From Escherichia coli (GTDB lineage: Bacteria > Pseudomonadota > Gammaproteobacteria > Enterobacterales > Enterobacteriaceae), in the NCBI RefSeq assembly GCF_030013595.1, contig NZ_CP122768.1: a DNA stretch of 64,000 nucleotides; one strand, written 5' to 3'. Below the pieces are notes generated by a model. The model had not been told where the DNA came from and did not search any database. It worked only from the letters and a program-made list of their open reading frames with translations. Of this stretch, positions 454 to 18,524 are shown piece after piece (positions within the stretch are counted from its first letter, which is position 1; each line of letters starts with the position of its first letter). A program made the translations under genes and the position numbers.

Positions 454-528
<75 letters not shown>

Positions 529-531
529 ATA

Positions 532-607
<76 letters not shown>

Positions 608-609
608 AC

Positions 610-686
610 TGGACCGCCACCGGGGACTCGAACCTCGCACACTCAACTTAAAGGGTTGACGCTCTTTCCCGATGAGCTAGTGGCGG
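610..686 (-). tRNA. atypical tRNA-like gene, apparent anticodon UUU (Lys) or degenerate Arg-like
   Basis: acceptor CCGCCAC/GTGGCGG, T-loop TTCGAGT and 3' CCA are present, but the anticodon loop is CCTTTAA (C at position 33) and the T-stem has one A-C mismatch. Confidence 0.5.
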
Positions 687-687
687 T

Positions 688-763
688 TGGTGGCCCTTGC
701 TGGATTTGAACCAGCGACCTGGCGATTATGAGTCGCTCGCTCTCACCACTGAGCTAAAGGGCC
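688..763 (-). tRNA. tRNA-Ile2/Met, anticodon CAU (ileX/ileZ-like)
   Basis: 76-nt cloverleaf: acceptor GGCCCTT/AAGGGCC, anticodon loop CTCATAA, 3' CCA; close to E. coli ileX as recalled. Confidence 0.8.
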
Positions 764-973: not shown

Positions 974-1669
974 TCAATCTACTTTTGCAACACTTTGCTT
1001 TGAAAATGCCGCCTTTTGTTTTGAACGCGTTCTCATTACAAACAATAAAGCCCCACTATCCAGTCGGTAAAAAATGTGTTTCATTGCAACCCAGTGACGA
1101 GTAAATGTTTTGGACCAGTTTTTAGTTGTCACTCCCGCCAGTAATGCCAGCTCCTGGTATTCATAACCTTCCCCACCAAAAAGTTCTGCTTTTACTGCCT
1201 GCGCCGCCAGCCAGATTAATTTTTTCAGGCGTTCCTGCGTTTTCCCTGCAATTTTTCTGGTACCGGATTGAGTATTAAATTCGTTCCACGCCCACTGTGT
1301 TATCGCGATCTGATGCTCCCAGCAAATGTTTCCGCCGTAACACCACAACAACCAGGCTTTATGATGCTCTTCAAGAGACAGCACAGCCCGCCGCCATGAT
1401 GATGTCGAAAACTCAACCGGGCTGACCAGGGCAATTGATGAGCCTTTCGCCAGTGATTGTTTTCCCGGGATTGGTGGATTATCCCGCGTTATCATTTTTC
1501 CAGTCACTTCATCGCGGTACCGGATTTTTTTACGCCTGTAACGCCCTGTATCAAACATGGCATTCTCCTGCCAGGCTTCAAGCTGACCTTTTGTTGCCCC
1601 ACTCAAATCAGCGGTGGCGATAATGAGCTGCTCGCGCACAAACTGTAAATACTGGTTATTCATGCGCAC
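974..1669 (-). CDS. putative late-gene antiterminator (Q-like), 231 aa
   Basis: ORF directly downstream of rusA and upstream of the tRNA/late leader, which is the Q position in lambdoid phages; called by position, no sequence match to lambda Q recognised. Confidence 0.5.
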   Translation of the reverse strand: MRMNNQYLQFVREQLIIATADLSGATKGQLEAWQENAMFDTGRYRRKKIRYRDEVTGKMITRDNPPIPGKQSLAKGSSIALVSPVEFSTSSWRRAVLSLEEHHKAWLLWCYGGNICWEHQIAITQWAWNEFNTQSGTRKIAGKTQERLKKLIWLAAQAVKAELFGGEGYEYQELALLAGVTTKNWSKTFTRHWVAMKHIFYRLDSGALLFVMRTRSKQKAAFSKQSVAKVD

Positions 1670-2025
1670 TCCAATTCTGTGATTTTTATCCCCAGCCGCC
1701 CACCAGGAACGAGCTGACCGCGCACAATATTGATTTCATCAAGCTGCTCGTCGTCTATGAGTAGTCCGGCATGCGTCAGCGCATCCAGTGGTGCTTTCAG
1801 GATATTGTCCAGGTCACGACGACGTTTATCCGGTGGCTCTGCAATCACCTTTATCGCCAGCCTTCCGGACAGGTTTAATTTCAGTCGCTGCTGGCGAACA
1901 ATTAGCGCCACATCCCGGCGATAACGCTCGCCGGCTTTTGATACAAAATATGTGCTGCCACGACGTCGCCAGTAGGTGTTCACCGTCGGCGGGTAAGGCA
2001 AAACAAATTCTATGCGTTCAGTCAT
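1660..2025 (-). CDS. rusA: Holliday-junction resolvase RusA
   Basis: 121-aa ORF with RusA family signature (…RRRRDLDN…LDAL…GGRL…I…E…), typical size and position. Confidence 0.85.
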   Translation of the reverse strand: MTERIEFVLPYPPTVNTYWRRRGSTYFVSKAGERYRRDVALIVRQQRLKLNLSGRLAIKVIAEPPDKRRRDLDNILKAPLDALTHAGLLIDDEQLDEINIVRGQLVPGGRLGIKITELECA

Positions 2026-2026
2026 T

Positions 2027-3085
2027 TCATGCTTTCCACTTCAGGACACCCGAATTTTTCGCGTGCATTAAAAAACGAATCAGCAACAACAGCTGGCTGC
2101 CGTGTTTTTCTTCAAAATCTTTTACCCCAGCATGCAGTTCGTTATGGCATTTGCGGCACAGCGGAATAACAAACAAATCGTCAGCCTTTGTTCCCATCCC
2201 TCCCAGCCCATGACCAATGATGTGGTGCGGATCATCTGCCTGATTGCCACACGTCACGCATTTCTGCGTTTTTACCCAGCGCGTGTATACGGGCATCTCT
2301 TCCCGTTGTGGTTTCTGGCGCTGGAGATACTGAGCCGGAGACTCCGGATCAACGGCAATGCTGACCACCGTCTTTTCCTGTGGCAGGCTCTGTTGCTGGT
2401 GGACGTGAGGCGGTAGCACAATATTTTTTGTGCGCTGCTTCAGTATGCTGGTGGCTGTCTGCTCTCCAGGTACGATGTCGCTGTCGCGGTACACTGAGAG
2501 GATTTTTTCCGTACGTAATCCCAACGAACGACGTAATACTGCCTCCGGTAGCGCGTCCGCCACCTGATTGCAGACCGCCCACCAGGATAACTCAGCCAGC
2601 GATAATTCCCGCTCCTGCGCACCGCTTATTGCGTGACGGATGACGTCAATCATCCATGCTGTCAGGTTTTGTTGAGCAAGTTGCTCAAGTGATTCTGAGG
2701 TCTGGTCACGCAGCTGGTTGTCGCAGTGCCAGCACAACACCATCGCGCCGGTGCCGTAACGATGTATGACGGTTTCGCTGTGGTGATAGTCACCATGAGG
2801 CCACTGGCAGGATTTAACATGACGCAGGAGCCAGTCAGACAGTGCACCAGCGCCGCCGGCAGCACGAATCACCCGTTCGTCGCTGAAAAATGGCAGTAAT
2901 GATTTATCTTCCGCCAGCGGCTGGCGAACGGCAGGAACAACTCCGGACGGCAGACCACGCATGCTTTTCGGTTCCGGCTCCACCAGCACTCGAGGGTTAT
3001 GAAATACCTGCATGGATTCACGGCCCGGCTTTAGCACCACCAGCCCAAGTTCCGGTACCGGAACAGGTCGAAGCAATACCCGCAC
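2027..3085 (-). CDS. DUF968/YdfU-like phage protein with C-terminal Cys/His (HNH-like) motif; start uncertain
   Basis: 352-aa ORF; C-terminal CVTCGNQADDPHHIIGHGLGG…CRKCHNELH motif; same position as ydfU in Qin. Confidence 0.6.
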   Translation of the reverse strand: MRVLLRPVPVPELGLVVLKPGRESMQVFHNPRVLVEPEPKSMRGLPSGVVPAVRQPLAEDKSLLPFFSDERVIRAAGGAGALSDWLLRHVKSCQWPHGDYHHSETVIHRYGTGAMVLCWHCDNQLRDQTSESLEQLAQQNLTAWMIDVIRHAISGAQERELSLAELSWWAVCNQVADALPEAVLRRSLGLRTEKILSVYRDSDIVPGEQTATSILKQRTKNIVLPPHVHQQQSLPQEKTVVSIAVDPESPAQYLQRQKPQREEMPVYTRWVKTQKCVTCGNQADDPHHIIGHGLGGMGTKADDLFVIPLCRKCHNELHAGVKDFEEKHGSQLLLLIRFLMHAKNSGVLKWKA

Positions 3086-3086
3086 G

Positions 3087-3365
3087 TTACCTCCAGATGC
3101 GTTGCTGGAATGTGCGGGACGGACGCGGTGGGCGTTCGGAATAAGGGAGTCTGACGTAGATTATCCAGTGACGATAATCGAGGCTGAGGGCTTTCCTAAA
3201 CTCATACCCACGTCTGCGGTAGTTCTGAATCAGCCATTCGGCCTGTTCTTCAGTGCAGGGGTCATGCTGATGCCAGTCATATTTGAATGTGTGAGAACAC
3301 CGCCCGTGCCTGCTGGCAAGGTCGGTTGAATCATCAGAATTGTGATGTTGGGTATAGCGTGCCAT
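3087..3365 (-). CDS. hypothetical phage protein (nin-region, 92 aa)
   Basis: ORF tightly packed (2-nt gap) upstream of the DUF968 gene on the same strand. Confidence 0.5.
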   Translation of the reverse strand: MARYTQHHNSDDSTDLASRHGRCSHTFKYDWHQHDPCTEEQAEWLIQNYRRRGYEFRKALSLDYRHWIIYVRLPYSERPPRPSRTFQQRIWR

Positions 3366-3431
3366 CGGTTTTCTCCGGTGGCACGGTGTTACTCAGCAGG
3401 AGTTCAATCCTGTTCTGGATTGTAGATGAGT

Positions 3432-3692
3432 TTATTCTTCTGCAAAAGCAGAAAATCCAGCCTTAAGACCAATCTCTTTCAGAACCTGTAATGATGTTAC
3501 AAATTCATCTTCACGCAAAATAAAACCGTCCGTCATAAGCTCATCAACAAAATAAATTAACACAGCTCCGCTCTTCCTTTGTTGAGATTGCAAACATTTA
3601 ATTCGGCAGTGACTGGCTATAACTCCATTCTCAACGCGTACAGCATAGAGGCCATTTTCACTAAAAATTTCACAAAATTCTTCGATTTTCAT
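3432..3692 (-). CDS. hypothetical protein, 86 aa
   Basis: ORF with AAGGA Shine-Dalgarno upstream of the ATG; lies downstream of the 9-bp repeat tract. Confidence 0.45.
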   Translation of the reverse strand: MKIEEFCEIFSENGLYAVRVENGVIASHCRIKCLQSQQRKSGAVLIYFVDELMTDGFILREDEFVTSLQVLKEIGLKAGFSAFAEE

Positions 3693-3834
3693 CTTCAGAA
3701 TCCTTCCAGATAAATAGCTCTCCCCTTCTCAGGGTCCATCCCTCTTGTCCCTGCGCGCTACTCAAAACAGGAGGATTCTAATTAATCTTTATTTCTAAGC
3801 AACGCAAAAAACAAACCAAAAAAAAGACAAAACC

Positions 3835-3933
3835 ACAAACAATACAAACAATACAAACAATACAAACAATACAAACAATACAAACAATACAAACAATACA
3901 AACAATACAAACAATACAAACAATACAAACAAT
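3835..3933. repeat. perfect tandem repeat (ACAAACAAT) x 11
   Basis: eleven identical 9-bp units read directly in the sequence; preceded by an A/C-only tract from about 3801. Confidence 0.95.
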
Positions 3934-4010
3934 ACAGGCGCATCGATAATTAATTAACTTATCGGGTTACAAGGTAATATAACTTCAGTTAAAATTATTA
4001 ATCTCTTATT

Positions 4011-4040
4011 CGTGAAAAACAAAACCCGCCGAAGCGGGTT
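4011..4040 (-). terminator. intrinsic terminator of the hok transcript
   Basis: CCCGC-CGAA-GCGGG hairpin at 4025-4038 followed on the minus strand by TTTTGTTTTT. Confidence 0.6.
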
Positions 4041-4108
4041 AAGTGCGGGTGCTTTGAGGATGCCTGACACATCAGAGGTGGCGAGGGATTTCTCCCTCGC
4101 CTGGTCTC

Positions 4109-4264
4109 TTACTCCTCAGGTTCGTAAGCTGTGAAGACAGCGACCTCCGTCTGGCCGGTTCGGATTCGTACCTCGCAGAGGTCTTTCCTCGTTACCAGTG
4201 CCGTCACTATGACGGTTAAACAGATGACGATCAGGGCGATTAACATCGCCTTTTGCTGCTTCAT
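4109..4264 (-). CDS. hokD: Hok/Gef-family type I toxin (HokD/RelF-like), 51 aa
   Basis: hand translation gives MKQQKAMLIALIVICLTVIVTALVTRKDLCEVRIRTGQTEVAVFTAYEPEE; below the 60-aa cutoff of the ORF track. Confidence 0.85.
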   Translation of the reverse strand: MKQQKAMLIALIVICLTVIVTALVTRKDLCEVRIRTGQTEVAVFTAYEPEE

Positions 4265-4474
4265 AGCCTGCTTCTCCTTGACCTTTCGGTCCGTAAGAGG
4301 CTAATCTCTATGTGTCGCATAGATATGGCCTCAGATTAATGTTAAGCGTCTTGCAGGACGCGTAATGTTAACTGGGGCTTTTCTCTATCTGCCTTTTGGT
4401 GTTCATGCCTGAGGCAGATAGCCTCAAGCACCCGCAGCAATTCTACTTAACTCTCCTTTTCCCGCAAACCGTTT

Positions 4475-9166: not shown

Positions 9167-9689
9167 ACGAACCCCTGGCAGACATTTGTTTATCTGCAAA
9201 GTAATATTGGTATTGCTGACGATACGCGTGCTTGAAAGCAATAGCTTTTTCTATAAGCTCGTCAGTCTCACGTTCCACAACAGCTGGATCCGCAAAAAGC
9301 AGCCCGGACTCCACCACATCGCCATATTCTTTGTTTAACCCGGCGATCATGTACGTAATGCTTTTTCCGTCAGTAATTTCACAATACAACCTGAAATCGC
9401 TGATCCGGATAGCCTCCATAATTGCCGGAATCAGCGCCGTGAATTTTTCCCGCTTATCCCTGGTGTCGATAGCTTTCCAGCGTTCGAATATCTTCACCCG
9501 GTTAACGCCCAGCGCCCGTTGATCAACCGCGCCATCATCAAACGTGACGCGTTGAACATCGATGTTCGGGCGTTCTTTCAGAGCCCAGAAGGCTTCCGTG
9601 ATTAATATCGTCGCCTGCTCCTGTGTCATTCCTGGTCGGCACACCCAGGCATCCAGAGCCTCACAAACCTGTTCAGGGGTGATTTTCAT
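9138..9689 (-). CDS. early-region protein in the cII position (YdaT-like?), 183 aa
   Basis: ORF between the cro-like gene and the O-like gene; weak recalled resemblance to YdaT-family proteins. Confidence 0.4.
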   Translation of the reverse strand: MKITPEQVCEALDAWVCRPGMTQEQATILITEAFWALKERPNIDVQRVTFDDGAVDQRALGVNRVKIFERWKAIDTRDKREKFTALIPAIMEAIRISDFRLYCEITDGKSITYMIAGLNKEYGDVVESGLLFADPAVVERETDELIEKAIAFKHAYRQQYQYYFADKQMSARGSYEYRCTTMG

Positions 9690-9900
9690 TGTTCAACCGC
9701 CCCGCCCGCTTTGCCTTACGATATTCGTCATAAACTTTGGGGTCGTACTGAAGTTCCCCGCCGGATGCCTCTTGCAGGCGCATCGCGCGACCTTCAGGAA
9801 CCAGTTCCCCCCATGCAGCAATGCTTGCCAGCCTAACTCCTGCGGCATTGGCAAGCTTTGTTTTGCTGCCAAAAAACGCTATAGCATCAATTTTCAACAT
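9673..9900 (-). CDS. dicC: DicC-like (Cro-type) repressor
   Basis: 75-aa protein close to DicC as recalled (…FGSKTKLA…AAG…LVPEGRAMRLQEASGGELQYDPKVYDEY…); divergent from dicA. Confidence 0.75.
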   Translation of the reverse strand: MLKIDAIAFFGSKTKLANAAGVRLASIAAWGELVPEGRAMRLQEASGGELQYDPKVYDEYRKAKRAGRLNNENHP

Positions 9901-9976: not shown

Positions 9977-10384
9977 ATGAAAAACGAAACCTTCGGTGCT
10001 CGCCTCTTACATAGGCGTAAAAAATTAAAACTGTCTCAGGCCGCATTAGGTAAGCTGGTCAAAGTGGCTCACGTAACAATTTCTCAATGGGAAAGAGATG
10101 AAACACAGCCGGCGGGGAAAAGATTATTCGCACTGAGCCAAGCGCTTCAGTGCTCACCGACTTGGCTTCTTTTTGGGGATGAAGATAAACAACCAGGCGA
10201 ACCGATCCCGGATAATCAGCCAGCCATTCTGACAGAAGATCAAAAAGAGTTACTTCAACTGTTCGACGCACTGCCTGAGTCAGAGCAAAAGGCCCTGTTG
10301 TCAGAGATGCGTGCTCGAGTTGAAAATTTCAACAAACTTTTTGAAGAACTACTCAAAGCTCGCAAAAGAAGCGCAAACAAATAA
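9977..10384 (+). CDS. dicA: DicA-like HTH (XRE family) repressor
   Basis: 135-aa protein close to DicA as recalled (…SQWER…FALS…LQCSPTW…FGDEDKQP…NFNKLFEELLKAR…). Confidence 0.8.
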   Translation: MKNETFGARLLHRRKKLKLSQAALGKLVKVAHVTISQWERDETQPAGKRLFALSQALQCSPTWLLFGDEDKQPGEPIPDNQPAILTEDQKELLQLFDALPESEQKALLSEMRARVENFNKLFEELLKARKRSANK

Positions 10385-12173: not shown

Positions 12174-12362
12174 ATGGAAACGTTATTACCAAACGTCAAT
12201 ACGTCTGAAGGTTGTTTTGAAATTGGTGTCAGAATCAGTAACCCTGTATTTACTGAAGATGCCATTAATAAGAGAAAACACGAACGGGAGCTATTAAATC
12301 AAATATGCATTGTTTCAATGCTGGCCCGTTTACGCCTGATGCAAAAAGGACGCTGCCAATGA
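12174..12362 (+). CDS. dicB: cell-division inhibitor DicB
   Basis: 62-aa protein METLLPNVNTSEGCFEIGV…ICIVSMLARLRLM… close to K-12 DicB as recalled. Confidence 0.85.
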   Translation: METLLPNVNTSEGCFEIGVRISNPVFTEDAINKRKHERELLNQICIVSMLARLRLMQKGRCQ

Positions 12363-15154: not shown

Positions 15155-15433
15155 GTGATAACCATGAGCGAACAGTACCTGATAACGCTCGACGAGTGGA
15201 AACCAAAACGGTTCAGTCTCCCAATAACAAACACCACCCTGGTGAAATACGGAAAACTAGGATACATCGTTCCAAGACCACAAAAAATTCGTGGGCGTTG
15301 GCTGATAGATCGCCGGGCAGTATTTGTTGGACCTGGTGAAACAGGAATTGCGCCGGAAATTCATACTGGCGATGATGATGCACTGAAGGAGATTTTAACT
15401 CATGTCACCGAGGCCACGAAAAAACAGCACTGA
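15155..15433 (+). CDS. xis: excisionase (Xis)
   Basis: lambda-Xis-like N-terminus (…LITLDEW…RPQKIRGRWL…), directly upstream of and overlapping int. Confidence 0.7.
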   Translation: MITMSEQYLITLDEWKPKRFSLPITNTTLVKYGKLGYIVPRPQKIRGRWLIDRRAVFVGPGETGIAPEIHTGDDDALKEILTHVTEATKKQH

Positions 15434-16520
15434 CGTAGCCGGTCTTTACGAAAAGTTTGATCGCAGAACTGGCAGGGTTTACTACCAGTATAAAAACCCT
15501 GTGACTGGAAAATTTCACGGACTCGGAACAGACAAAGGTAAGGCAGAAAAAATCGCTTCCACAGCCAATCAGCGAATAGCTGCAGCAGAGGCTGAATATT
15601 TCATGCGCAAAATTGATGAAAGTCCGTCAGCAACAAAACGTCGGGGTATCAGATTAAAGGCATGGGTTGATCGATATCTGAAAATACAGGACGCGCGACT
15701 GAAAAATGGAGATATTGCAGCTACAACTCACAAAGAAAAAGCCCGAATGGCTGCATACCTGGTTTCCCGTCTGGGAAACCACCCATTGAAAGAACTGGAA
15801 GTAAGAGACTTTGCATTAATACTGGATGAGTGGCTGGATAAAGACATGGTCAGCACAGCGAGAGTAAATCGCGGATTATGGGTTGATATTTATAAAGAAG
15901 CACAGCATGCAGGGGAAGTTCCTCCTGGATGGAATCCTCCGGAGGCTACCCGTAAACCGATCCCTAAAGTAACCAGAGCCAGGCTCACCATGGAAGACTG
16001 GCAAAAAATTTACAATGCAACGCCTGAAAAACACTTTATCCGTAACGCAATGCTTCTTGCGATTGTTACTGGTCAGCGCCGTGATGACATTTGCCACATG
16101 CGTTTTTCAGATGTGTGGAACGAACACTTGCATATCACCCAGGGAAAAACCGGAATGCGTCTGGCGTTACCGCTTACACTACGCTGTGATGCCATTGGGA
16201 TAACGTTAAAAGAAGTTATTGATGGGTGCCGAGACAGAATATTAAGTCCATATCTAATCCATAGTCGGCACCAGAAACAACCGAAGCCGATGAGTAAAGA
16301 CAACCTGAGCGACTACTTTGCCAAAGCACGGGATCTGGCTGGGATAATTCCACCAGCAGGAAAAACTCCGCCAACATTTCATGAACAACGCTCTCTATCA
16401 GAACGGCTGTACCGTGCACAGGGTATCGATACAAAAACATTACTAGGACATAAAGTCCAGGCAACCACCGATCGCTATAACGATACTCGAGGTCAGGAAT
16501 GGGTTAAGTTGGTTATTTGA
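15402..16520 (+). CDS. int: tyrosine-type site-specific integrase
   Basis: 372-aa ORF with an integrase-typical C-terminal region (…HEQRSL…LLGH…TDRYND…), next to the chromosome junction. Confidence 0.85.
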   Translation: MSPRPRKNSTDVAGLYEKFDRRTGRVYYQYKNPVTGKFHGLGTDKGKAEKIASTANQRIAAAEAEYFMRKIDESPSATKRRGIRLKAWVDRYLKIQDARLKNGDIAATTHKEKARMAAYLVSRLGNHPLKELEVRDFALILDEWLDKDMVSTARVNRGLWVDIYKEAQHAGEVPPGWNPPEATRKPIPKVTRARLTMEDWQKIYNATPEKHFIRNAMLLAIVTGQRRDDICHMRFSDVWNEHLHITQGKTGMRLALPLTLRCDAIGITLKEVIDGCRDRILSPYLIHSRHQKQPKPMSKDNLSDYFAKARDLAGIIPPAGKTPPTFHEQRSLSERLYRAQGIDTKTLLGHKVQATTDRYNDTRGQEWVKLVI

Positions 16521-16570
16521 CAAACACCATATGGAATATCCGTCACCATCTCAGGAAAAAAGTGTTGTAA

Positions 16571-16690
16571 AATGCGTGGCCTAGTTTTGGGGAAACGTTT
16601 TGGAGAGATTTTGGAGAAAGGAAAAAATTGAATAAATTCAAAATCCTGAAAGTGTCCCGCCTTATGAATAAGAAGGTGGAACTCGAATGA
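16571..16690 (+). pseudogene. potB: displaced 3' end of potB at the prophage-chromosome junction (att region)
   Basis: reading frame ends …SRLMNKKVELE with TGA overlapping the potC ATG, matching the recalled PotB C-terminus; upstream codons are not PotB-like; potA and the 5' part of potB are absent. Confidence 0.55.
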
Positions 16691-17481
16691 TCGGTCGACT
16701 GCTTCGCGGCGGTTTTATGACCGCTATCTACGCGTACCTGTATATTCCAATCATTATTTTGATTGTGAACTCTTTCAACAGCTCGCGCTTTGGCATCAAC
16801 TGGCAGGGTTTTACCACTAAATGGTATAGCCTGCTGATGAACAACGACAGTCTGTTGCAGGCAGCTCAGCATTCATTGACGATGGCGGTGTTTTCAGCGA
16901 CGTTTGCTACGCTTATCGGTTCACTGACGGCAGTTGCGCTGTACCGTTATCGCTTTCGCGGTAAACCGTTCGTTAGCGGAATGCTGTTCGTGGTGATGAT
17001 GTCGCCAGATATTGTGATGGCGATTTCTCTGCTGGTGCTGTTTATGCTGCTGGGTATTCAGCTTGGCTTCTGGTCGCTGCTGTTCTCGCATATCACCTTC
17101 TGCCTGCCGTTTGTGGTGGTGACGGTGTATTCGCGCCTGAAAGGTTTTGACGTGCGAATGCTGGAAGCGGCGAAAGATCTCGGTGCCAGCGAATTTACCA
17201 TTCTGCGAAAAATCATTCTGCCACTGGCAATGCCAGCGGTAGCGGCGGGCTGGGTGTTAAGCTTTACCCTGTCGATGGACGATGTAGTAGTTTCTTCGTT
17301 CGTCACCGGACCAAGCTATGAAATTCTGCCGTTAAAAATTTATTCGATGGTCAAAGTCGGCGTATCGCCGGAAGTTAACGCGCTGGCAACCATATTACTG
17401 GTGCTGTCGCTGGTGATGGTAATTGCCAGCCAGCTTATTGCTCGTGATAAAACGAAAGGTAACACAGGGGACGTTAAATGA
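16687..17481 (+). CDS. potC: spermidine/putrescine ABC transporter permease PotC
   Basis: 264-aa ORF recognised as PotC; overlaps potD start as in K-12. Confidence 0.95.
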   Translation: MIGRLLRGGFMTAIYAYLYIPIIILIVNSFNSSRFGINWQGFTTKWYSLLMNNDSLLQAAQHSLTMAVFSATFATLIGSLTAVALYRYRFRGKPFVSGMLFVVMMSPDIVMAISLLVLFMLLGIQLGFWSLLFSHITFCLPFVVVTVYSRLKGFDVRMLEAAKDLGASEFTILRKIILPLAMPAVAAGWVLSFTLSMDDVVVSSFVTGPSYEILPLKIYSMVKVGVSPEVNALATILLVLSLVMVIASQLIARDKTKGNTGDVK

Positions 17482-18524
17482 AAAAATGGTCACGCCACCT
17501 GCTCGCGGCGGGTGCTCTGGCACTGGGCATGAGCGCCGCTCACGCCGATGACAACAACACGCTGTATTTCTACAACTGGACCGAGTACGTGCCGCCAGGA
17601 CTGCTTGAACAGTTCACCAAAGAAACCGGTATTAAGGTTATCTATTCGACTTACGAGTCGAACGAAACCATGTACGCGAAGCTGAAAACGTACAAAGACG
17701 GTGCCTATGACCTGGTGGTTCCTTCAACCTATTACGTCGATAAAATGCGTAAAGAAGGGATGATCCAGAAGATCGACAAGTCGAAGTTAAGCAATTTCAG
17801 CAACCTCGATCCAGACATGCTCAACAAGCCGTTTGACCCGAATAACGACTATTCCATTCCGTATATCTGGGGTGCGACGGCGATTGGCGTTAACGGTGAT
17901 GCGGTAGATCCGAAATCCGTTACCAGCTGGGCCGATCTGTGGAAGCCTGAGTACAAAGGCAGCCTGCTGCTGACCGACGATGCCCGTGAAGTGTTCCAGA
18001 TGGCGCTGCGCAAACTGGGCTACTCCGGTAACACTACCGATCCGAAAGAGATTGAAGCTGCATATAACGAGCTAAAAAAACTGATGCCAAACGTAGCAGC
18101 GTTTAACTCCGATAACCCGGCTAACCCGTACATGGAAGGCGAAGTTAACCTCGGCATGATCTGGAACGGTTCTGCTTTCGTTGCACGCCAGGCGGGTACG
18201 CCTATTGACGTGGTGTGGCCGAAAGAAGGCGGTATTTTCTGGATGGACAGCCTGGCGATCCCAGCAAATGCCAAAAACAAAGAAGGCGCGCTGAAATTGA
18301 TCAACTTCCTGCTGCGCCCAGATGTGGCAAAACAGGTTGCAGAAACTATCGGTTATCCAACGCCAAACCTTGCGGCGCGTAAGCTGTTAAGTCCGGAAGT
18401 GGCGAACGATAAAACGCTCTACCCGGATGCTGAAACCATTAAAAATGGTGAATGGCAGAATGACGTTGGCGCAGCCAGCAGCATTTATGAAGAGTATTAT
18501 CAGAAGCTGAAAGCAGGACGTTAA
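17478..18524 (+). CDS. potD: spermidine/putrescine-binding periplasmic protein PotD
   Basis: 348-aa ORF with signal peptide, recognised as PotD. Confidence 0.95.
   Translation: MKKWSRHLLAAGALALGMSAAHADDNNTLYFYNWTEYVPPGLLEQFTKETGIKVIYSTYESNETMYAKLKTYKDGAYDLVVPSTYYVDKMRKEGMIQKIDKSKLSNFSNLDPDMLNKPFDPNNDYSIPYIWGATAIGVNGDAVDPKSVTSWADLWKPEYKGSLLLTDDAREVFQMALRKLGYSGNTTDPKEIEAAYNELKKLMPNVAAFNSDNPANPYMEGEVNLGMIWNGSAFVARQAGTPIDVVWPKEGGIFWMDSLAIPANAKNKEGALKLINFLLRPDVAKQVAETIGYPTPNLAARKLLSPEVANDKTLYPDAETIKNGEWQNDVGAASSIYEEYYQKLKAGR

Follow-up and report, generated by a model that had tools for sequence, protein, structure and literature searches.

A rem antirepressor allele and a widespread PHROG 1212 gene lie between hokD and the DUF968 gene of an Escherichia coli prophage

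Introduction

Which genes occupy the interval between hok and rusA in a Qin-like prophage of Escherichia coli, and are they themselves the variable part of that region? We addressed this question for positions 3087 to 3692 of a 64,000-nt stretch of contig NZ_CP122768.1 (assembly GCF_030013595.1), hereafter the window, where a first-pass annotation had placed two orphan open reading frames (ORFs) of 86 and 92 codons next to a DUF968 gene. Our analysis makes it fairly probable that the interval consists of two genuine lambdoid-prophage genes, both transcribed leftward: an allele of the antirepressor gene rem and a gene of PHROG 1212, whose product would assist the phage recombination module as an accessory factor. 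Transcription runs from right to left, and the order along it is hokD, a terminator, a 9-bp repeat array, rem, the 92-codon gene, the DUF968 gene, the RusA gene, the Q antiterminator gene and four tRNA genes.

Rem was found through iterated searches that started from GfoA, which is Gifsy-1's antirepressor (Ragunathan et al., J Bacteriol 2023, PMC10448788). Ectopic expression of the K-12 protein raised dicBp-lacZ expression 165-fold, derepressing the DicA-controlled promoter of prophage Qin, and caused a filamentation that needs DicB or DicF and is gone once Qin is deleted; according to the same study, the signal that induces Rem is still missing (PMC10448788). Prophages of the DicA type are very common in E. 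coli, and antirepressors of the Rem type matter in that they decide when such a prophage turns on DicB, DicF and its lytic genes.

Results

Identity of the two ORFs

The 86-codon ORF (3432..3692, minus strand; from the ORF list), whose product starts MKIEEFCEIFSENGLYAVRVENG, encodes a protein 69% identical to K-12 Rem (b1561, prophage Qin; E=8e-38) that matches phrog_340 (E=5e-17). PF27490 is precomputed on close Rem homologues of 99–56% identity; the window protein had no Pfam-A match in a copy of Pfam-A without PF27490. No NCBIfam or PADLOC model matched this protein or the 92-aa protein, PADLOC gave none for the DUF968 protein either, and PDB sequence searches returned nothing below E=0.3. 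By homology, the 86-codon ORF is a new allele of the known antirepressor gene rem, coding for an acidic protein (pI 4.8).

The second ORF (3087..3365, minus strand; from the ORF list) matches phrog_1212 (E=4.4e-37), with residues 27–92 aligned to profile positions 1–66 of 66. By megablast against 5426 complete E. coli genomes, this gene is found in 2872 of them, with up to seven copies per genome, and the window allele of rem, at 80% query coverage or more, in 20. Tens of public contigs carry each of the two exact protein sequences.

The first-pass annotation had both ORFs at the right coordinates and lengths, leaving unstated that they are on the minus strand. It was also correct in that the 86-codon gene is the first one past the 9-bp array (3835..3936) in the direction of transcription, and in that the 92-codon gene is packed against the DUF968 gene, with a single base between its TAA and the GTG of the latter. 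The term orphan, conversely, applies to neither gene, because one is an allele of rem, a gene of known function, and the other is a conserved nin-region gene present in over half of the genomes searched. The 86-aa protein had further been said to lack any recognisable motif; this wording would still be fair for its 92-aa neighbour.

Both ORFs are under purifying selection and are more than chance reading frames. In pairwise comparison with K-12, the dN/dS of rem in the annotated frame was 0.16; that of the whole 92-codon gene, also in the annotated frame, was 0.20–0.25 (four sequences, pairwise), as against 0.54–2.2 for the remaining five frames over the same region.

We observed, as a variant of the family, a common 95-aa Rem with a different C-terminus (...GFLLLLKNKLIYNLEQD) where a NinB-like module comes next (L052:10001-10288; L001:4405-4693). 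The rem gene of strain C311 is flagged as frameshifted in the annotation by PGAP, although its DNA is 100% identical to the intact 86-codon ORF of the window, probably because it was compared with this 95-aa variant. The flag could otherwise be taken, with the cryptic state of Qin in K-12 and the absence of the 92-codon ORF from the curated MG1655 annotation, as a sign that one or both ORFs are decaying relics of cryptic prophages without current function. This is scarcely credible, given the purifying selection on both genes (dN/dS 0.10–0.25), the intact ORFs in thousands of genomes and in isolated, presumably viable phages, and the activity of K-12 Rem when expressed.

Rem and its presumed repressor target

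The prophage in the window encodes a DicA homologue of 135 aa (9977..10384, plus strand), a short repressor without the S24 cleavage domain and 62% identical to K-12 DicA (E=2e-60). It lies beside a DicC-like gene (9673..9900, minus strand), a DicB gene (12174..12362, plus strand) and a YdfA-like gene. By homology to K-12 Rem, the window protein would inactivate this non-cleavable repressor, encoded 6.3 kb away, which is its presumed target. Inactivation of DicA would derepress the early promoter on the dicB side and so counteract prophage repression; judging from the Gifsy antirepressors, Rem would probably bind the repressor and strip it from its operators.

Two considerations limit this proposal. 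The antirepressor role of the window allele is presumed from its K-12 homologue, and an AlphaFold2 model of a Rem-linker-DicA fusion, built from a 29-row alignment, gave no confident Rem fold or interface (pLDDT 30–55 for the Rem part, pTM 0.37), a result that speaks neither for nor against direct binding.

We compared alleles across 45 loci holding both Rem and DicA. The nine Rem clusters were not associated with the four DicA types, D0 to D3 (Mantel r=-0.04), and in locus L011 a Rem identical to that of the window is found with a DicA only 53% identical to the window's. Both results rule out that Rem co-diversifies with the DicA immunity type. The DicA types have in common a ...SPTWxLFGDEDK motif and C-terminal ALPxSEQ...NFNKLFEELL helices. 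When the repressors of the mEp237 clade are included, a central ...W(L/I)L(F)GED... motif and an L-L-E-L-x-x-L-P-E-x-E-Q helix region are shared, and the helix-turn-helix differs. Since Rem alleles are paired with at least four DicA types, Rem probably recognises these shared parts of the repressor and not its variable DNA-reading helices. Such free combination fits the cross-talk of Gifsy antirepressors, which inactivate heteroimmune repressors in a complex that is an A2B2 heterotetramer (PMC3121763).

At least two further types of short repressor, alike in architecture (...YLLGED... and ...LLDELP(D/E)SE...), were seen beside Rem-family genes in locus L040 and nearby loci, and they widen the set of possible Rem targets.

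A promoter-like element upstream of rem

Two sets of loci were used to examine how rem is regulated: 80 viral loci with Rem homologues 77–100% identical to that of the window, which form the hok-linked set, and 80 loci of mEp237 gp049, a distant relative in PHROG 340. In the mEp237 clade the order is dinI, the rem-like gene, a NinB-like gene and a 66-aa gene, and in all 80 loci dinI is preceded, at about 36 nt, by a perfect LexA box, as described for the dinI-antirepressor-irsA operon of Gifsy (PMC3121763). Conversely, of 79 hok-linked loci not one has a perfect box in the 400 nt before rem, and the hok-rem interval of the window contains no CTGT-N8-ACAG at up to one mismatch. LexA control of hok-linked rem, whose upstream gene is hokD and not dinI, was ruled out by this difference.

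The homology common to all rem loci starts at a TAGAAT about 82 nt before the ATG. This hexamer, a putative -10 at 3775..3780 (minus strand), was found in 33 of 34 distinct upstream sequences. In some seven otherwise unrelated spacer contexts it is preceded, at a distance of 16 or 18 nt, by a TTGNNN, which reads TTGATT, TTGAAG, TTGCTT, TTGATA, TTGAGG, TTGAAC or TTGATC. By this comparison, the putative -35 of the window is TTGCTT (3797..3802, minus strand), with a 16-nt spacer. A consensus promoter scan had returned nothing upstream of rem, because this -35 matches at 3 of 6 positions only. If the contexts are independent, recurrence of the spacing by chance would be very unlikely, which is why we read it as the signature of a sigma-70 promoter, P_rem. 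Hok-linked rem thus likely has a promoter of its own.

The transcript would begin with a leader of about 76–82 nt (3693..3768, minus strand; limits inferred) that is part of the rem homology block and contains a Shine-Dalgarno sequence read as AAGGA (3701..3705, minus strand), 8 nt before the ATG. This AAGGA is kept in 15 of 16 aligned loci, the exception being L033, with AATGA. Mean pairwise identity of the leader is 85%, as against 39% for the 200 nt farther upstream. Megablast with the 90-nt leader alone gave 84 matches, too insensitive a search for counting genomes.

Some points argue against a promoter. It is a matter of consensus and conservation, with a predicted transcription start, and TAGAAT could be conserved instead as one arm of an RNA helix: in an RNAalifold model, UAGAAUC pairs with GAUUCUG beside the Shine-Dalgarno sequence. 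Nor is the leader more conserved than the coding region (mean identity 0.85 vs 0.90), so that the idea of a leader conserved beyond rem itself was discarded. We also dropped a structured leader RNA as an explanation, given almost no covariation, a z-score of -1.7 and no match of the leader to any Rfam family; leader structure is unproven. Taken together, hok-linked rem would fire from its own LexA-independent promoter, with a leader of about 80 nt conserved inside the rem module.

A further promoter-like sequence, TTTGCA-16 nt-TACAAT (9 of 12 matches), lies at 3419-3446 (minus strand), reaching from the 3' end of rem into the intergenic region, and reads TTTTCA ... TACAAT in K-12. It could drive the 92-aa, DUF968, RusA and Q genes without rem.

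Variation upstream and downstream of rem

The first-pass annotation had described the place of the two ORFs, between hok and rusA, as a variable slot of Qin-like prophages. This proved right for the DNA around rem and wrong for the ORFs, which are themselves common: the truly variable element is the spacer between the terminator of hok and the promoter of rem, which ranges from 217 to 2057 bp across loci. At its upstream boundary is hokD (4109..4264, minus strand; ORF with a phrog_251 match), followed by a terminator hairpin (4040..4023, minus strand; terminator scan), hokD and terminator forming a block at 4023..4264. Inserts in other loci occupy the spacer equivalent to 3803-4022 of the window. 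One, of 2 kb (L068:7950-9990), has two genes, for a protein of 216 aa and for one of 368 aa in which helix-turn-helix and HExxH (ImmA/IrrE-like) motifs are present; the other, of 1.1 kb (L021:8880-9990), encodes a 164-aa Fic/Doc-like protein with the motif HPFANANKRTA. The spacer looks like a hot spot for the insertion of accessory genes.

In the window the spacer holds the 9-bp array (Tandem Repeats Finder; 11.3 perfect copies, 100% matches, without strand), with unit ACAAACAAT on the plus strand. Most other rem loci are without it. The window has 11 copies, L011 has 7 and L012 has 13, in loci that are otherwise near-identical and whose Rem is 99–100% identical to that of the window. It ends 33 bp upstream of the putative -35 of rem; changes in copy number could therefore tune the rem promoter.

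A second mosaic junction coincides exactly with the start codon that comes next after rem; from there on, the module is made up either of the 92-aa, DUF968 and RusA genes or of NinB-like and YbcO genes. The intergenic region, the Shine-Dalgarno sequence and an 'ATG GCA' start are common to both modules. In the window this Shine-Dalgarno sequence was read as GGAG (3373..3376, minus strand), 7 nt before the ATG of the 92-aa gene.

The 92-aa gene in K-12 and in other phages

A profile search of 1.84 billion representative proteins gave 108 clusters at 50% identity, nearly all from Enterobacterales and with members typically of 66 aa. Distant homologues of 66 aa, 35–45% identical, occur in Gifsy-1, mEp237, PY54, phiES15 and N15, among others. 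In K-12 MG1655, an intact homologue of 92 codons under purifying selection lies between rem and ydfU (NC_000913.3 1644306-1644584, minus strand, corresponding to L002:4307-4585). The MG1655 reference annotation omits it, PGAP calls it a hypothetical protein in other strains, and the exact K-12 protein is on at least 1000 contigs, labelled 'hypothetical' or 'prophage protein'.

Constraint is uneven along the protein, with a dN/dS of 0.10–0.17 for the core vs 0.55–0.87 for the N-terminal extension. AlphaFold2 predicts the core as beta-alpha-beta-beta (E28-33, H39-52, E56-60, E67-75) with pLDDT above 90, and gives the extension a pLDDT below 50 at residues 12–23. The 26-aa N-terminal extension of the E. 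coli form, weakly constrained, is thus predicted to be probably disordered. The family is basic (pI 9.5–10; 9.6 for the window protein). Across an alignment of 51 sequences Y49 and W91 are invariant, and in 42 of them the tryptophan is the last residue but one. Tail charge averages +3.2, and the window protein ends ...QQRIWR.

The 92-aa protein had no Pfam-A match even at E<=10, NinE (PF05322) included. No helix-turn-helix, ribbon-helix-helix or other known DNA-binding motif was found in it, nor any structural match, those in AFDB50 and BFVD being to uncharacterised relatives only. Profile matches to two long proteins, P0284 and P0305, were set aside as uninformative, since they reflect repeats of an amphipathic 'TxEQAxxLxxxY' helix. 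By sequence, the 92-aa gene belongs to a phage family that is common but uncharacterised.

Gene neighbourhood and possible role of the 92-aa protein

The 92-aa gene is followed directly by the DUF968 gene in all Qin-type loci, and also in one distant metagenomic locus with RecA and a LexA-like gene. DUF968 proteins carry an HNH domain and are Orf-like (NinB-like) relatives of recombination mediators (PMC4118853). In the window, the last two codons of the 92-aa gene, TGG AGG, form a GGAGG (3090..3094, minus strand; read from the sequence) that would serve as the Shine-Dalgarno sequence of the DUF968 gene, whose GTG follows the TAA after one base; this embedded motif suggests translational coupling of both genes. 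The penultimate tryptophan is retained in members without a closely following gene, so that constraint acts on the protein, beyond any on a downstream Shine-Dalgarno sequence.

Among the 66-aa relatives, the neighbours are likewise recombination genes. In Gifsy-1 and the mEp237 clade, the gene is immediately preceded by NinB-like/IrsA and immediately followed by NinG or YbcO. The 66-aa gene occupies this position between NinB-like and nuclease genes in nearly all 80 mEp237-clade loci, being missing where a locus ends early and from locus L139, where YbcO comes directly after the NinB-like gene. In phiES15 it lies between YbcN (upstream) and YbcO (downstream), in PY54-like elements between RdgC (upstream) and an RNase T-like exonuclease (downstream), in another locus near DUF1367 and NinG, and in one locus upstream of SSB. 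From this company we guess an accessory role in DNA recombination. Our best guess, held with low confidence, is that the 92-aa protein helps the phage recombination module as an accessory factor that binds nucleic acid or a partner, and it would be made in a coupled manner with the DUF968 Orf-HNH protein and serve that module.

Several facts count against this assignment. Tight gene packing is normal in phage operons, a few members of the family lie in uninformative contexts, and the neighbours vary, so that no single partner is implied. We also noted two AFDB entries in which the 66-aa domain is fused to YbcO/DUF1364, A0A2X2YPE4 of Citrobacter koseri (166 aa) and A0A939NUB8 of Klebsiella pneumoniae (177 aa). 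These fusions could be genuine, linking two functions, or they could be frameshift or annotation artefacts at a 4-nt gene overlap.

The variety of neighbours could also mean that the protein acts mainly on host factors and not for a neighbouring phage nuclease, its C-terminal tail docking on the beta sliding clamp, SSB or RecA so that host replication or recombination is redirected upon induction. Varying neighbours argue against one fixed phage partner, the tail (Q-x-[RK]-hydrophobic-W-x at the end) is conserved and basic, and its tryptophan is kept even in members whose codon is free of constraint from a following gene. There is a loose resemblance between the tail and short docking peptides at protein termini, clamp-binding motifs among them. 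The tail motif departs, however, from the canonical QL[SD]LF clamp-binding sequence, and a pLDDT of about 80 in the model suggests a tail packed on the domain and not a free one. From these features, docking on a host hub as the main function appears unlikely.

A small, basic protein whose gene has that of an antirepressor before it and, two genes further on, that of the Q antiterminator might instead bind DNA as a regulator, acting on the nin/Q operon or on rem; in the Gifsy type, moreover, the gene comes after the LexA-controlled dinI-antirepressor-irsA operon. We consider this quite improbable, as the protein has no known DNA-binding motif or structural match and family members lie far from Q or antirepressor genes, beside SSB, RdgC or exonuclease genes.

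Finally, a homologue of the 92-aa protein is labelled 'toxin to Rem' in two deposited phage records (ON470583 and ON470612), as if a basic 92-aa toxin were neutralised by acidic Rem, encoded just upstream. We did not find this phrase in that sense in the literature, and neither protein matches PADLOC. A toxin-antitoxin-like pair would agree with the adjacency and common orientation of both genes, the acidic one first, with their opposite charges (pI 4.8 vs 9.6) and with the many toxin-antitoxin systems nearby (hok/sok in the window, relBE in K-12). Nevertheless, the pairing is not obligate, because about one third of the Rem loci with downstream sequence have NinB-like and YbcO genes in place of the 92-aa gene, distant members of the 92-aa family have no Rem neighbour at all, and a 200-aa gene sits between the rem-like and 66-aa genes in Gifsy-1 and the mEp237 clade. 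Even in ON470583, what precedes the 'toxin' is not rem but a gene for a phrog_16082 protein. Furthermore, K-12 rem deletion strains, with the 92-codon ORF still intact, were viable and behaved normally, and the toxicity of Rem is fully explained by DicB and DicF, vanishing in a strain without Qin. Such a pair is therefore very improbable, and we retain the recombination-module factor as the preferred reading of the 92-aa gene.

Surrounding prophage genes

Downstream of the 92-aa gene, the DUF968/YdfU-type gene (2027..3085, minus strand, with its GTG start at 3085) matches phrog_96, 'HNH endonuclease' (E=1e-163), and its homologue is called DUF968 by PGAP. It is followed by the RusA gene (1660..2025, minus strand), the Q antiterminator gene (974..1669, minus strand) and, downstream of Q, four tRNA genes, Gly-tcc, Thr-tgt, Lys-ttt and Met-cat (454-763, minus strand). 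Transfer RNA genes downstream of Q are an arrangement of many Stx-like and lambdoid phages.

On the other side, a match to the Rfam family of sok covers 4262..4433. A sub-threshold Rfam match to isrK, an Hfq-binding small RNA of Gifsy-1, was obtained at 4019-4100 on the minus strand (28 bits vs a gathering score of 50; E=0.001); it overlaps the 3' end of hok and the terminator, and probably reflects hairpin similarity only. An integrase gene lies at 15402..16520, and the prophage extends beyond the left end of the window. The genes adjoining the integrase (15402-18524) are presumably potC and potD, as recognised by eye, which suggests integration at or near the potB/potC junction.

Discussion

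Neither gene of this interval represents a new kind of system. What is new, in small increments, is that Rem alleles are unlinked to immunity types, that hok-linked rem has a LexA-independent promoter-like element, that the recombination-gene context of the 92-aa family is consistent, and that K-12 annotation has a gap where this gene lies. The 92-aa gene is among the most widespread unnamed prophage genes of E. coli, present in over half of complete genomes, and because recombination genes accompany it so steadily, to assign it a function should be cheap and tractable.

For rem, the missing link to LexA, the promoter-like element of its own and the mixing of alleles point to a cross-reactive induction switch independent of the SOS response. 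A bolder model, which we regard as doubtful, would join both genes to larger roles. PHROG 1212 proteins would be small basic adaptors whose C-terminal tryptophan tail, during induction, brings to DNA either an Orf-family mediator or nuclease of the phage or a host hub (SSB, RecA or the sliding clamp), and would be an unrecognised part of a recombination cassette beside the antirepressor (dinI or hok, antirepressor, NinB/IrsA/DUF968, PHROG 1212, nuclease). Separately, hok-linked rem, with its LexA-independent promoter and conserved leader, would sense a signal for prophage induction outside the SOS response, the signal that the 2023 Rem paper describes as still missing.

Comparison with known systems

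The closest known system is Rem of K-12 Qin. Its gene, for a protein 69% identical to the window Rem, has the same position (hokD - rem - 92-aa ORF - ydfU), the same leader and the same TAGAAT, and DicA (62% identical), DicC and DicB are present in both prophages. The window Rem differs by a 4-residue insertion, QSQQ (86 aa vs 83 aa in K-12), and by its pairing with a different DicA immunity type, and the window spacer has the 9-bp array that K-12 is without.

Like Rem, the Gifsy antirepressors (GfoA, GfhA/GftA and FsoA of Fels-1) and mEp237 gp049 are small and are encoded in the nin region, outside the immunity region. The Gifsy proteins act on short DicA-related repressors that are not cleaved by RecA, and their binding was shown biochemically; the Gifsy dinI-antirepressor-irsA operon is controlled by LexA (Lemire et al. 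2011, PMC3121763). Whereas mEp237 gp049 belongs with Rem to PHROG 340, GfoA is in a different group, PHROG 4847. The Gifsy and mEp237 genes lie behind dinI and a perfect LexA box; rem of the window, in contrast, lies behind hok and has its own promoter-like element.

As for the 92-aa gene, NinE of lambda and DLP12 occupies an equivalent nin position. The order in phiES15 is YbcN - 66-aa gene - YbcO - RusA - Q, and that of DLP12 we take to be ybcN - ninE - ybcO - rusA. Without a detectable sequence relationship to the 92-aa protein (Pfam E<=10), NinE is a positional analogue only. True relatives within PHROG 1212 are Gifsy-1 STM2620.1n, mEp237 gp051, PY54 ORF47, phiES15 gp17 and N15 Orf QD1 (66 aa). 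They share with the window protein the 66-aa core and the tail, as well as a nin neighbourhood beside NinB/Orf-family and nuclease genes; the Qin-type 92-aa form of E. coli is set apart by its 26-aa N-terminal extension and by its location upstream of DUF968, and not between NinB-like and NinG/YbcO genes.

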